Assembly: GCF_051903065.1 (NCBI RefSeq) | Contig: NZ_CP178438.1 | DNA length: 64,000 nucleotides | Direction: 5' to 3' (one strand) | Source: Escherichia coli | Lineage (GTDB): Bacteria > Pseudomonadota > Gammaproteobacteria > Enterobacterales > Enterobacteriaceae | In this document: piece by piece, positions 7,472 through 12,205 of the stretch | How positions within the stretch are numbered: the stretch's first letter is position 1 | How the letters are laid out: every line of letters begins with the position of its first letter | Program-made: the position numbers and the translations under genes | The notes under the pieces: model-generated | Told to the model about the DNA's origin: nothing | Seen by the model: only the letters and a program-made list of their open reading frames with translations | Databases searched by the model: none

Positions 7472-8512
7472 ATGCATCGTATAGACACGAAAACCGCGCA
7501 GAAGGATAAGTTCGGCGCGGGTAAGAACGGTTTTACCCGTGGTAACCCCCAGACCGGCACACCTGCCACCGATCTGGATGATGACTACTTTGACATGTTG
7601 CAGGAGGAGCTTTGCAGCGTTGTGGAGGCATCAGGTGCCAGCCTGGAGAAGGGGCGGCATGACCAGTTACTTACCGCACTTCGCGCGCTGCTGTTAAGCC
7701 GCAAGAATCCGTTTGGCGATATCAAATCGGATGGCACGGTGAAAACAGCTCTCGAAAACCTTGGTTTGGCTAATTACGCAGACAAAGCAAGTCTGGCGAA
7801 TCAGGAGTTTTCTGGTCCCGTATCATCTAAAGACTGCGTTACCGCAACATCGGCAGATGGGGTAACCCGCAAAGTATCGCTTAATGCCAGTACGGGTTTG
7901 AAGATAGTTATTTATGATGGCGGAACTTACAAGGGGGCAATAAACATCCCGGCAAAAGACGGGACAATGGCACTTGTATCTGATTTGGCTAATTTTGCTG
8001 ATAAATTGAGTGCTTCTGAGCAATATTTTAAAGGACCTGTTTCATCCGGGGATGGGCTCATAGCAAAATATGGCACCGCAAAAATAATTCTGTCAGCCCA
8101 AAACGGTCAGAGAATTGTTGTTTATACAAACGACACTTACCGTGGAGCTATTAATATTCCACTTCGTGACGGAACTATGGCGCTCCTGGATGATGTTACT
8201 AATGTTAGCGCAACGCTGCTGGGTATATCTCAGTCATGGCAGAACGTGAAAGCCAGCCGTAGTGCCGGGGTTACGTATACCAACTCAACAGGCAGGCCCA
8301 TTGCAGTTTCAATCGCCGGAATAATGGCAACACGTCAGAATGGAGTTCAGTTGTCACTTGCCGTTAATGGCACAGAGGCTTCAAGTTTTGCCGTGACTGA
8401 CAGCTCGTTTGACATCAGGGGTAACGTATTTGCGATTGTGCCACCAGGAGCAACTTACAAACTTACAGCAAATAACATTAATTCTATTTTGACCTGGTCG
8501 GAGCTTCGCTAA
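7472..8512 (+). CDS. Phage tail fibre protein
   Basis: 346 aa; N-terminus [10 protein letters not shown]...[23 protein letters not shown] resembles the conserved tail-fibre N-terminal domain; internal ~60-aa duplication; followed by an assembly chaperone gene. Confidence 0.75.
7749..7774. other. hix/gix-like imperfect palindrome inside the tail fibre gene (candidate invertase crossover site)
   Basis: ctctcGAAAACC-TT-GGTTTggctaat; compare the hix half-site TTCTTGAAAACC; lies at the junction of the conserved N-terminal and variable C-terminal fibre regions (codons ~93-101). Confidence 0.45.
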
Positions 8513-8889
8513 TGAATACGGTAATCAAAGAGCAAAAATTCTTTAAGGACTCGGCCGGTGTGATTTTTTGCATCGACATCATGGAAATGAATGCTGAGTC
8601 ATGGGGTGAAGAAGTACAGGCCGGATGGCAGGAAATTAGTGCCGATGAAGCGCTATTAATTGCTAATCCACCGCCTACAGAGGAACAGCTATTTGAACAG
8701 GTTAGGGCGCAGAAACAGGCCCTGATTTCCGAGGCGACTGCAATTATAGATCCACTTAAGGATGCACTGGATGGTGGCTATATCGACGATGCAGACAAAC
8801 CAAGACTGACTGAATGGCAAAAGTACCGCTATGAGGTGACGAAAGTTGATCCGGGAAAACCTGTGTGGCCACCGAAGCCTACAGAATAG
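8512..8889 (+). CDS. Tail fibre assembly protein (Tfa/U-like chaperone)
   Basis: 125 aa; start overlaps the fibre stop; C-terminus ...KYRYEVTKVDPGKPVWPPKPTE typical of Tfa proteins. Confidence 0.75.
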   Translation: MNTVIKEQKFFKDSAGVIFCIDIMEMNAESWGEEVQAGWQEISADEALLIANPPPTEEQLFEQVRAQKQALISEATAIIDPLKDALDGGYIDDADKPRLTEWQKYRYEVTKVDPGKPVWPPKPTE

Positions 8890-8932
8890 GAACATTTTTT
8901 ATAACCATCAAAAATCTGGTGATATTTCGCCT

Positions 8933-8958
8933 CTTCTCCTGTTTTTACAACAGGAGAA
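8933..8958 (+). other. Perfect 10-bp stem hairpin overlapping the invertase Shine-Dalgarno sequence
   Basis: cttctcctgt-tttaca-acaggagaag; the right arm contains AGGAG positioned 7 nt before the invertase ATG at 8965. Confidence 0.5.
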
Positions 8959-8964
8959 GCACTC

Positions 8965-9528
8965 ATGATTTACGGGTATGTTCGTGTATCAACAAATCAT
9001 CAGGATACAGAGTTGCAACGTCTTGCACTTGAGTCAGCTGGCTGTGAGCGAATTTATGAAGAATATGCCAGTGGCAGAACAGCTAATCGCCCTGTGTTAA
9101 AGGAATTAATTACGGTGATGAAAAGTGGAGATGAGTTGATTGTCTGGAAGTTAGATCGGATAGGGAGAAATGTGCTGCATGCGCTATTTATGTTTCAAAA
9201 TCTGCACGAAAAAGGTGTTAATTTTCGGAGTATTACAGATGGCGTAGACCTGAAAACAGCAAGTGGTCGCTATAATTTCCGTAATATTCTTTCTGCTGCG
9301 CAGTATGAATCTGATTTGAATAGCGAGCGAACTTTAGCTGGTTTGGCTATTGCCAGATCCAAAGGCCGGATTGGTGGGCGTAGACCGAAGTTTAGCGACG
9401 AGCAGTGGCAACAGATGGGAGCGCTCATAGCGGCAGGGAAATCACGGCGTTATGTTGCACGTATCTATAACGTTGGGCTATCAACCCTATATAAACGATT
9501 TCCTGTTACTGGCATTCAAACGAAATAA
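8965..9528 (+). CDS. Serine recombinase, DNA invertase (Gin/Pin/Hin family)
   Basis: 187 aa; MIYGYVRVSTNHQ...LDRIGRN motifs characteristic of resolvase/invertase family; adjacent to tail fibre genes as in the Mu G-segment/gin arrangement. Confidence 0.85.
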   Translation: MIYGYVRVSTNHQDTELQRLALESAGCERIYEEYASGRTANRPVLKELITVMKSGDELIVWKLDRIGRNVLHALFMFQNLHEKGVNFRSITDGVDLKTASGRYNFRNILSAAQYESDLNSERTLAGLAIARSKGRIGGRRPKFSDEQWQQMGALIAAGKSRRYVARIYNVGLSTLYKRFPVTGIQTK

Positions 9529-9671
9529 TTTAAAAGCAATTTAAAGAGTTATTTGTCTAATGTTGGAAGCCGCAGCCACGTCGTATGCAAGAACGTGCTG
9601 CGGCTGGCTGGCGAACTTTCGATAGTGCGAGTATTGAATGATTTCCAGCCGTTACCGATTTTACGTGTTAA

Positions 9672-9920
9672 TTAGTGAACAAACCACTCGTCAGCAGATT
9701 CCCAGGTATCTTTCAGAGTCTCCTGAACAAAAGTTTTTGCAGAATCCTTATCTGCGGTGCGTGTAACAGAAAGGCCATCGTTGCTGGTGGCTTTTACGAT
9801 CACCTCTACATCGTCATAACGTTTACTGATGCGTCGGGTTAATTCTTCCTTTAACGCATCCACAGCACCGGTTGGCATTTTAGTCATTTTTTCTTTGGCT
9901 ATGCAGATTTCAATACGCAT
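9672..9920 (-). CDS. DinI-family DNA damage-inducible protein
   Basis: 82 aa; MRIEI...[24 protein letters not shown]...DEWFV pattern typical of DinI/MsgA; LexA boxes immediately upstream. Confidence 0.8.
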
Positions 9921-9935
9921 AAAAGTCCCTCTATA

Positions 9936-9979
9936 CTGTGTTTGTATACAGTATTATTTTTAACTGTATAGATAAACAG
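9936..9979 (-). promoter_or_regulatory. Two tandem LexA (SOS) boxes upstream of the DinI-like gene
   Basis: taCTGTgtttgtatACAGta (9936-9951) and aaCTGTatagataaACAGtg (9964-9979), both CTGT-N8-ACAG. Confidence 0.75.
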
Positions 9980-9981
9980 TG

Positions 9982-11079
9982 TCAAGAGGCCTTATTTCTG
10001 CTCCTTTGGAGCTCTTCAAAACGATTATGTAAAGATTTCGGATACAGTTCGGTATATACCTGCCATAGCACGTTTAATGAACGATGCCCTGTAACCTGGG
10101 CGACTTCCTCAATACTAAAACCAGCCTCAAATAAGCGACTTGCCCCTTCTCTACGCAAATCATGGTATCGCAGATCTTTAATACCTAATTTGCTTCTTAC
10201 CCTCTGGAATCCCGCAGTAACAGAAGTGCTGTTATATGGAAAAATGAATTCTGATTTTTTGGGTTGTCGTTGGACGATATCCCAGGCTTCCCCAAGCAAG
10301 GCTACTTTCATATGGTTGCCTTCCTTTTTACGTGGATCTTTCCTGTCTCTTACGAGTATGGATTTTTGTTCCTGATCGAGATCCTCCCATCGTAATCGGC
10401 ATACTTCACCGATTCGCATACATGACCACACAGAAAATTTGAGGATATCAACGAACGGAATTTTTGAGCATTTATGTGTAGATCGTTGTTGAAGACCTTC
10501 AATGAGCATGTCCAGTTCATCAGATGCCGGTCTACGATTACGACGATTTGATTTACCAATTAAACCAAGTTTAAGTAGATATGGACGAGCGGCTTTTGCT
10601 GGGTTTGATGTGTAATTAATTCCATATACAGGTTTGGCAGCATCCAGAACACTGCCAAGATAACTAACATCGTGGCTAACTGTAGCTGGACCTGCACCAG
10701 CGTTGTTTCTTAGCCTGCAATGTTCAATTACGTCATTTTCTGTCAGTTCAGATAGTTTGAGCGCGGAGACGTCACTATCCATAAGCAGTTCCAGCACATA
10801 TCTTTTAGTACGGCCTGCTTTACCTCCGGCATTTGGGTCATTTAAATATTTGTGTAGTAAGTCACGGACTGTAAGTCCGTCAACTGCATTTGATGATGGA
10901 ATGCCATATAGATCTAATTCCATCACTTTCTGTGTGCCCCATGTTTTGGCATGAGCATGTTTAGGGAATGTTTTACTTTCCCTGTAAGTGATAACACCTT
11001 TTTCTTTGATAATCACATTACAGCGATAGCGTGGTGTGCCATCGGATTTTAGTCGTTTCTCTATGTTATAGTATGCCAT
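9982..11079 (-). CDS. Tyrosine-type phage integrase
   Basis: 365 aa; C-terminal region with R...HDLRR...Y spacing typical of tyrosine recombinases; GAGG RBS 8 nt upstream; terminal position of the prophage next to dusA. Confidence 0.8.
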   Translation of the reverse strand: MAYYNIEKRLKSDGTPRYRCNVIIKEKGVITYRESKTFPKHAHAKTWGTQKVMELDLYGIPSSNAVDGLTVRDLLHKYLNDPNAGGKAGRTKRYVLELLMDSDVSALKLSELTENDVIEHCRLRNNAGAGPATVSHDVSYLGSVLDAAKPVYGINYTSNPAKAARPYLLKLGLIGKSNRRNRRPASDELDMLIEGLQQRSTHKCSKIPFVDILKFSVWSCMRIGEVCRLRWEDLDQEQKSILVRDRKDPRKKEGNHMKVALLGEAWDIVQRQPKKSEFIFPYNSTSVTAGFQRVRSKLGIKDLRYHDLRREGASRLFEAGFSIEEVAQVTGHRSLNVLWQVYTELYPKSLHNRFEELQRSRNKAS

Positions 11080-11167: not shown

Positions 11168-12205
11168 ATGCACGATAATCATGAAACACAAAAAATTAAT
11201 CAAACCAGCGTGATGCCTGAAAAAACTGGTGTTTACTGGAATTCTCGGTTTAGCATTGCTCCTATGCTCGACTGGACGGACAGACATTGCCGCTATTTCT
11301 TGCGTCTGCTTTCCCGCAATACGTTGCTGTATACCGAAATGGTGACTACAGGGGCGATTATTCACGGTAAAGGTGATTATCTGGCGTACAGTGAAGAAGA
11401 ACATCCGGTAGCGTTGCAACTGGGCGGTAGCGATCCGGCGGCGCTGGCGCAGTGTGCGAAGCTGGCAGAAGCGCGCGGATATGATGAGATCAACCTGAAT
11501 GTCGGCTGCCCGTCTGACCGGGTGCAGAACGGCATGTTTGGTGCGTGTCTGATGGGTAATGCGCAGCTGGTTGCCGACTGCGTGAAAGCGATGCGCGATG
11601 TGGTGTCGATTCCGGTGACGGTGAAAACGCGTATTGGCATCGATGATCAGGACAGCTATGAATTTCTCTGCGATTTCATCAACACCGTTTCCGGCAAAGG
11701 CGAGTGTGAGATGTTCATCATCCATGCACGTAAAGCCTGGCTTTCGGGGTTAAGCCCGAAAGAAAACCGTGAAATCCCGCCGCTCGATTATCCGCGTGTG
11801 TATCAACTGAAGCGTGACTTTCCGCATCTGACAATGTCCATTAACGGTGGCATCAAGTCGCTGGAAGAAGCTAAAGCGCATTTGCAACATATGGATGGCG
11901 TGATGGTCGGGCGCGAGGCGTATCAGAATCCGGGTATTCTGGCGGCGGTAGACCGGGAGATCTTTGGTTCCTCGGATACCGATGCCGATCCGGTTGCGGT
12001 AGTGCGCGCCATGTATCCGTACATTGAGCGTGAACTCAGCCAGGGGACGTATCTCGGCCATATTACCCGGCATATGCTGGGCTTGTTCCAGGGTATTCCT
12101 GGCGCGCGGCAGTGGCGGCGTTATTTAAGTGAAAATGCCCATAAAGCGGGTGCAGACATTAATGTGCTGGAACACGCGCTCAAACTGGTGGCGGATAAGC
12201 GTTAA
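11168..12205 (+). CDS. dusA: tRNA-dihydrouridine synthase A
   Basis: 345 aa; recognised DusA sequence and K-12 synteny (dusA-pspG-qorA-dnaB); extreme N-terminus may be prophage-supplied. Confidence 0.9.

Follow-up and report, generated by a model that had tools for sequence, protein, structure and literature searches.

What does a pair of LexA boxes lodged between a phage integrase gene and a gene of the DinI family tell us about the place of a prophage in the SOS response of its host? The question was raised by the initial annotation of a stretch of Escherichia coli DNA of 64,000 nucleotides (contig NZ_CP178438.1 of assembly GCF_051903065.1; the whole of this stretch is named the window below), which proposed that an SOS-induced modulator of RecA sits within a prophage, next to its integrase, and that it might link host damage signalling to prophage behaviour. 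The answer, which we hold to be very probable, is that the locus is an accessory phage cassette, or "moron", under repression by LexA, which covers about 420 bp (~9567-9986 on the minus strand) and is made of a sigma-70 promoter, a DinI-like gene and a hairpin. Its place is the tail-fibre end of a prophage of the lambdoid, mEp460/SKA5-like type inserted in dusA.

Two LexA boxes within a predicted promoter

The elements that matter here are the following.

9982..11079, minus strand: dusA-type tyrosine integrase, 365 amino acids (Pfam Phage_integrase, E=1e-20)
9980..9985, minus strand: -35 hexamer TTGACA, perfect (promoter scan; a promoter is annotated here in mEp460)
9962-9981, core 9964-9979: distal LexA box AACTGTATAGATAAACAGTG, matrix score 23.2 bits
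9956..9961, minus strand: -10 hexamer AAAAAT (promoter scan, 10/12 matches)
9934-9953, core 9936-9951: proximal LexA box TACTGTGTTTGTATACAGTA, matrix score 24.6 bits
9926..9932, minus strand: Shine-Dalgarno sequence AGAGGGA, read from the sequence, 5 nt upstream of the ATG
9672..9920, minus strand: DinI-like gene, 82 amino acids (open reading frame, Pfam DinI)

The gap between the integrase stop codon and the ATG of the DinI-like gene covers 61 bp (9921-9981). It contains two palindromes of the form CTG-N10-CAG with AT-rich spacers, exactly where the initial annotation had located them (cores at 9936-9951 and 9964-9979), and its qualification of both as near-consensus is justified, as they obtain the best two LexA-matrix scores of the window. 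These scores come from a position weight matrix made from 18 E. coli LexA sites of the literature. In the ranking of the 64 kb, the 24.6 and 23.2 bits of the two boxes are followed by 20.5 bits for the uvrA/ssb box and then by a match at 10.8 bits, while the best score across 30 shuffles of the window is 18.7 bits. The proximal box matches the LexA consensus at 17 of 20 positions and is the sole site of the window with at most three mismatches, when shuffles let us expect 0. The two boxes are far beyond chance. The window also provides an internal positive control, the genuine LexA operator shared by uvrA and ssb (ACCTGAATGAATATACAGTA, at 23490-23509), which scores below both prophage boxes.

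The minus-strand sequence of the gap is TTGACA-CTGTTTATCTATACAGTT-AAAAAT-AA-TACTGTATACAAACACAGTA-TAGAGGGACTTTT-ATG. The -35 hexamer begins 3 nt within the open reading frame of the integrase, whose stop codon it overlaps; the -10 element AAAAAT is weak, with an alternative, TAAAAA, one base upstream. The distal box makes up essentially the entire 18-nt spacer between -35 and -10. The proximal box begins 2 nt past the -10 element, therefore covering the transcription start, predicted near 9947-9950, and it ends 13 nt ahead of the ATG, with 28 bp from the centre of one box to that of the other. Both are thus predicted to overlap a sigma-70-like promoter in the standard geometry of SOS promoters around -10. 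What is commonly found in the LexA regulon is found here: near-consensus operators of the TACTG(TA)5CAGTA type in both boxes, their overlap with the core elements or transcription start of a promoter, here a predicted one, and their retention at homologous loci.

This retention was followed at two depths, as the scan of viral contigs gave copies that were 99-100% identical only, the diverged homologues coming from tblastn of phage records. Both boxes are present in every one of the 80 IMG/VR loci where the upstream region was captured, with changes at non-critical positions only. A set of 22 distinct full-length copies shows a nucleotide diversity of 0 for the proximal 16-mer as well as for each of the four CTG/CAG triplets; the value for the distal 16-mer is 0.025, to be compared with 0.038 at third codon positions. 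Farther away, twelve diverged phage dinI homologues out of twelve (from 95% down to 37% protein identity) show, in the 330 nt upstream, a matrix match that reaches 12 bits or more. In JLK-2012 the boxes are degenerate, the retained distal one scoring 14.9 bits. VT1-Sakai, 1720a-02, PhiR12 and Citrobacter phiNP all have two boxes in tandem, whose ends lie 13-14 and 40-42 nt ahead of the ATG; in phiNP this layout persists at 56% protein identity. In a clade comprising Gifsy-1, mEp237, SEN34, Chris1 and Klebsiella phi12.4 there is one box, at 18-19 nt from the start codon, and the lone box of K-12 dinI aligns with the proximal box of the cassette. Yersinia phage YeP2 displays still another order: a strong LexA box (26 bits), some 305 nt upstream of dinI, precedes a small open reading frame, an arrangement (box, small frame, dinI) that resembles the split tum described for PSP3 and Fels-2.

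A cassette that travels between prophages

The prophage setting proposed by the initial annotation can be made more precise: the prophage is inserted in dusA, and phage homology ends at 11271. From position 1 to about 11271 the window is a prophage end, with genes for the tape measure, a Mu-type baseplate (homologues of gp44-48), a tail fibre and tail-fibre assembly, together with a Pin/Gin-type invertase, the dinI-like gene and the integrase, the DNA of the latter being 97% identical in mEp460 and SKA5, where it is annotated as integrase. The dusA gene itself (11168-12205; NCBIfam DusA) is divergent from the integrase gene. The position where homology to mEp460 and SKA5 stops marks the end of the prophage, and it falls within an attachment motif.

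11258..11276, plus strand: dusA attachment-site motif (18/19 to the published att motif, PMC6328086)

Taken with the homology end, this motif therefore makes the prophage a member of the known dusA-integrating phages, and the element has the features of those carrying a dusA-specific integrase (Farrugia et al., 2015). Such phages replace the 5' end of dusA (Farrugia, 2015; Balasubramanian, 2019, PMC6328086). Here the first ~100 nt of dusA, from 11168 on, are supplied by the phage, so that the lysogen carries a hybrid dusA.

Two other observations, one on this prophage and one on its relative mEp460, can be mentioned in passing. The Pin/Gin-type DNA invertase (8965-9528), convergent with dinI, comes after a single tail-fibre gene and its assembly gene (window 7472-9528). 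A search of 7472-9528 for inverted crossover repeats and for an alternative inverted set of tail-fibre genes near the invertase gave nothing convincing, whereas SKA5 has such an alternative set (locus L002, 2305-3359); the invertible tail-fibre segment seems to have been reduced or lost. In the nin region of mEp460, mEp460_046 (locus L098, 8426-8752) codes for a 108-residue "LexA DNA binding domain protein", possibly a non-cleavable binder of SOS boxes; the corresponding region of the present prophage is not covered by the window.

The integrase stands outside the dinI cassette, its stop codon abutting the dinI promoter. In VT1-Sakai, PhiR12, JLK-2012, phiNP and several IMG/VR contigs, the upstream edge of homology coincides with the start of the -35 hexamer (9985/9986); in several copies with other neighbours, pairwise alignments put the downstream edge at 9567-9578, the foot of the hairpin. 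The neighbours differ from phage to phage (yehV/attL in VT1-Sakai, attR in JLK-2012, and still other copies are without this integrase). Promoter, gene and terminator go as one unit, thus a classic phage moron: a single accessory gene is surrounded by a promoter and a terminator of its own (in the window, a hairpin without U-tract), with sharp homology edges and differing neighbours among phages. The significance that the initial annotation had given to the adjacency of the integrase finds no support in this distribution, as cassette homology starts at -35 and occurs without this integrase. With a break exactly at the -35 element, the adjacency is therefore incidental, a matter of insertion site, not of function.

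The cassette is widespread. Of 5426 complete E. coli genomes, 1407 (about a quarter) contain at least 80% of its 420 bp, while the junction with integrase and dinI-like gene is found, at 80% coverage or more, in 728 of the 5426. A single genome may have up to 9 matches to the cassette query, many of which are a relic located near ykgJ. Among phages, the stretch formed by integrase and dinI is 97-98% identical in SKA5, Lys8385Vzw, mEp460 and phiSTEC1575-Stx2k, and the dinI part alone appears in 134 phage records, mostly of Stx-converting phages. Elsewhere dinI may be followed by cargo on the same strand, as in JLK-2012, phiNP and VT1-Sakai: espV, coding for a type III effector, or hicAB together with the gene of a serine acetyltransferase, or a ykgJ-like gene. 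Through the cassette, cargo of this kind may come under SOS control.

The relic deserves a word. In 5244 of the 5426 E. coli genomes, directly upstream of ykgJ, there is an unannotated, ~86% identical remnant of the 3' end of the cassette, the counterpart of window positions 9578-9729 (in K-12 MG1655 it lies between ykgJ and ecpE; locus L097, 2684-2900). Its coding part has decayed (~80% identity, stop codon lost), and a piece of about 57 nt of 3' untranslated region is unusually well kept, at ~97% identity. Since an intact dinI precedes a ykgJ-like gene in VT1-Sakai, ykgJ of K-12 looks like the fossil of such a phage moron.

Downstream of the dinI-like stop codon, an untranslated stretch of about 100 nt closes with a GC-rich hairpin of 14 bp.

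9606..9671, minus strand: 3' untranslated region (conserved with mEp460 and VT1-Sakai)
9568..9605, minus strand: GC-rich terminator-like hairpin (fold and alignment)

The 156 nt that contain the hairpin (9525-9680) fold with a z-score of -2.85. The copies of mEp460 and VT1-Sakai have a U-tract right after the hairpin, which makes it a standard intrinsic terminator. This tract is missing in the window, where the hairpin is followed by TTCCAAC (segment 9560-9610) instead of the TTTTTCTTTTT of mEp460, homology breaking right after the hairpin. Termination may be leaky in the window for want of the U-tract. An SOS-induced transcript may then read antisense into the convergent invertase gene (8965-9528).

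This region brings to mind DinR, a small RNA that has its source in the 3' untranslated region of Klebsiella dinI. An SOS-induced RNA of this kind is unsupported here, even though the K-12 relic has kept part of this stretch so well: among the 22 distinct copies the diversity of the 3' untranslated region is equal to, and no lower than, that of third codon positions, and the window has no U-tail. Searched against Rfam, the hairpin returned CssrB alone, below threshold (22 bits versus 76), and sRNA-17 of RS218/mEp460 (PMC7719688) was discarded as its sequence is absent from the window.

The DinI-like protein

The identity given to the product by the initial annotation stands: the protein belongs to Pfam PF06183 and shares 46% identity with DinI of K-12 along its whole length. 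The Pfam DinI model recognizes residues 16-80 with 70.9 bits, for a cut-off of 24.2 (E=1e-19), and residues 1-81 align with the DinI structures PDB 1ghh/7ywa (E=4e-13). At the C-terminus, the motif WE(S/T)AD(D/E)WF is kept over 14 homologues, with W replaced in two of them; its residues E74, A76, D77, W79 and F80 are invariant among the 14, K-12 DinI included, so that the helix motif of the family is in place. In DinI this acidic C-terminal helix acts as a DNA mimic contacting RecA (Voloshin, 2001, as quoted in a passage of PMC3121763). The protein obtains 73 bits with the NCBIfam equivalog model of DinI (NF007893), with a cut-off of 111. It must therefore be considered as a paralogue within the DinI family, not as the orthologue of the chromosomal gene, and a biochemistry identical to that of DinI becomes an assumption. 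The name of the gene in RefSeq, "DinI-like family protein", is in keeping with this caution.

How the switch may work and what it may do

Control of the cassette by LexA is well supported by the combination of sequence, geometry, conservation and experiments on homologues, and it suggests the following scenario. In undamaged cells, LexA dimers would sit on both operators, one in the -35/-10 spacer, the other over the transcription start, as sequence, position and conservation indicate, and RNA polymerase would thus be excluded. Upon DNA damage, and if we extend to this locus what homology with Gifsy and Klebsiella dinI suggests, active RecA would trigger the self-cleavage of LexA and the promoter would open. 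The 82-residue product, to judge from its family, would bind RecA filaments via its acidic C-terminal helix and modulate RecA activities, adding to the dose of DinI made by the host. Two strong operators would probably result in tighter repression and later induction than those of the one-box chromosomal dinI.

What the phage may gain from this switch is another matter. One possibility, which we consider unlikely, is that the cassette tunes prophage induction: the DinI-like protein would alter the RecA-stimulated self-cleavage of S24-type repressors, that of its own prophage as well as those of co-resident lambdoid prophages, either damping induction at low damage or prolonging the RecA signal. 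DinI does modulate the coprotease activity of RecA (Yasuda, 1998; Lusetti, 2004, as cited in passages of PMC3121763 and PMC10575684), the related phage mEp460 has an S24-type, self-cleaving repressor, several copies may meet in one genome (up to 9 matches, with the reservation that many are the ykgJ relic), and two strong operators suggest expression only under heavy damage. However, in the Gifsy prophages it is a downstream antirepressor, not DinI, that triggers induction, and non-polar deletions of dinI were without significant effect (PMC3121763), which speaks against a strong influence. Furthermore, the window does not extend to the immunity region of this prophage, and the phages that carry the cassette differ in their immunity systems, its boxes being sometimes degenerate (JLK-2012).

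A more specific version gives the leading role to the distal box, which would make the cassette a two-operator, late-opening SOS switch, the summed copies setting the RecA threshold for cleavage of S24-type repressors. We see this as rather improbable. If true, lysogens would have a phage-encoded, shared damper or timer of induction and of SOS mutagenesis, acting also on co-resident Stx and other lambdoid prophages.

It would be tempting to go one step further and see in the locus a LexA-controlled antirepressor switch of the type of 186 Tum or of the Gifsy dinI-gfoA/gftA pairs, where the dinI-like gene is fused or co-transcribed with an antirepressor. LexA-box promoters ahead of dinI homologues are indeed a signature of those systems (PMC3121763), and in Yersinia phage YeP2 the box precedes a small frame upstream of dinI. 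The anatomy of the locus already largely refutes this reading, to which we give very little chance: a search for a minus-strand frame of at least 20 codons between the dinI stop and the convergent invertase gene, as needed for an antirepressor operon, found none, the 82-residue protein aligns end to end with DinI, without a Tum-like N-terminal half, and mEp460 has a cleavable S24 repressor. Compared with the known modules (186 Tum, Gifsy gfoA/gftA, N15 AntC), the locus thus has neither a fused nor a co-transcribed antirepressor. Hence the link to prophage behaviour that the initial annotation had put forward is unsupported, with no antirepressor frame attached, a repressor of the S24 type in mEp460 and no effect of dinI deletion in Gifsy.

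Finally, that the palindromes serve the integrase (as terminator, roadblock or sites for recombination proteins) or are chance AT-rich palindromes without a role for LexA is hardly credible, even though the distal box starts 1 nt from the integrase stop codon, as the boxes travel with dinI and not with the integrase, come closer to the LexA consensus than does the genuine uvrA/ssb operator when no such match is expected by chance, and flank the -10 element in the standard geometry of SOS promoters.

A LexA-repressed accessory cassette remains the reading we favour. To be sure, it has little weight as a discovery: the annotation of LexA-controlled dinI homologues in prophages goes back to 2000 (VT1-Sakai), and experimental tests in Salmonella to 2011. 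Its practical value is modest, that of a clean, conserved two-operator SOS promoter. The cassette may also contribute to the way lysogens, including carriers of Stx phages, handle DNA-damaging antibiotics, and in one comparative study the emergence of resistance to quinolones was tied to a DinI-like gene carried by a prophage (PMC10575684).

Comparison with known systems

The cassette is already described and very common in E. coli prophages, and is therefore ordinary. The GenBank record AP000400 (VT1-Sakai, or Sp15, the Stx1 prophage of O157 Sakai) marks within its own copy of the cassette a "putative promoter of H0001 and H0002", then "LexA protein ... putative SOS box", which is the proximal box, and a "DNA-damage-inducible protein I"; that of mEp460 (JQ182728) has entries for the promoter and for a DinI-like product. 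What is added here is small and limited to the conserved distal box, which is not marked as an SOS box in the records inspected. VT1-Sakai, mEp460, SKA5 and many Stx phages have homologous DNA, 90-98% identical from -35 to hairpin, with proteins 95-100% identical and with promoter and proximal box at the same positions as in the window. In VT1-Sakai the cassette adjoins attL/yehV, is followed by a ykgJ-like gene and has weaker boxes (15.8 and 16.5 bits), whereas the copy of the window comes after a dusA-type integrase, without downstream gene and without U-tract.

For this E. coli cassette, a literature search for direct evidence of LexA binding or induction came back with indirect hints only, namely that c0943, dinI-like in the CFT073 annotation, changed together with sulA, umuD, recN and dinI in an array study (PMC2817434). 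A bioRxiv report on the loss of "lexA and dinI" in irradiated O157 was set aside, as it concerns the chromosomal genes and is uninformative for the cassette. LexA ChIP has been performed on chromosomal dinI of Klebsiella (PMC10907235).

The experimental counterpart is found in Salmonella. The dinI homologues of Gifsy-1, -2 and -3 each stand first in an operon repressed by LexA (Lemire et al., 2011, PMC3121763), and a study of the Salmonella SOS regulon saw them increase 4.6-23-fold with nalidixic acid (PMC8072944). As in the window, a prophage gene of the DinI family stands directly behind a LexA box and a promoter, with SOS induction shown experimentally there. In contrast, the Gifsy genes are part of the nin region, with one box at 18-19 nt before the start codon; they head a dinI-antirepressor-irsA operon, none of whose accessory parts occurs at the present locus, and code for proteins only 42% identical to that of the window. 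Tum of coliphage 186, split in PSP3 and Fels-2, is likewise a LexA-controlled phage gene with a DinI-like segment, but it has 146 residues with an antirepressor N-terminal half, whereas the protein of the window is a DinI domain only.

Closer in layout are PhiKO2 and Serratia phage OS31. In the latter, the tail genes are followed by a dinI-like gene of reverse orientation that has a LexA box 14 bp ahead of it (PMC7556043), and a passage of the same article cites LexA regulation of the PhiKO2 homologue. The orientation, the place downstream of tail genes and the distance of the box, about 14 bp, are those of the window, while a single box is reported there and the OS31 gene is translationally coupled to a second reading frame.

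The host gene itself offers the last comparison. K-12 dinI codes for a RecA-filament-binding protein of about 81 residues, 46% identical to the phage protein; its box takes the position of the proximal one, and a short gap likewise separates it from the gene upstream. It has a single box, overlapping -10, while the cassette adds a strong box in the spacer and a different layout of its -35 and -10 elements.
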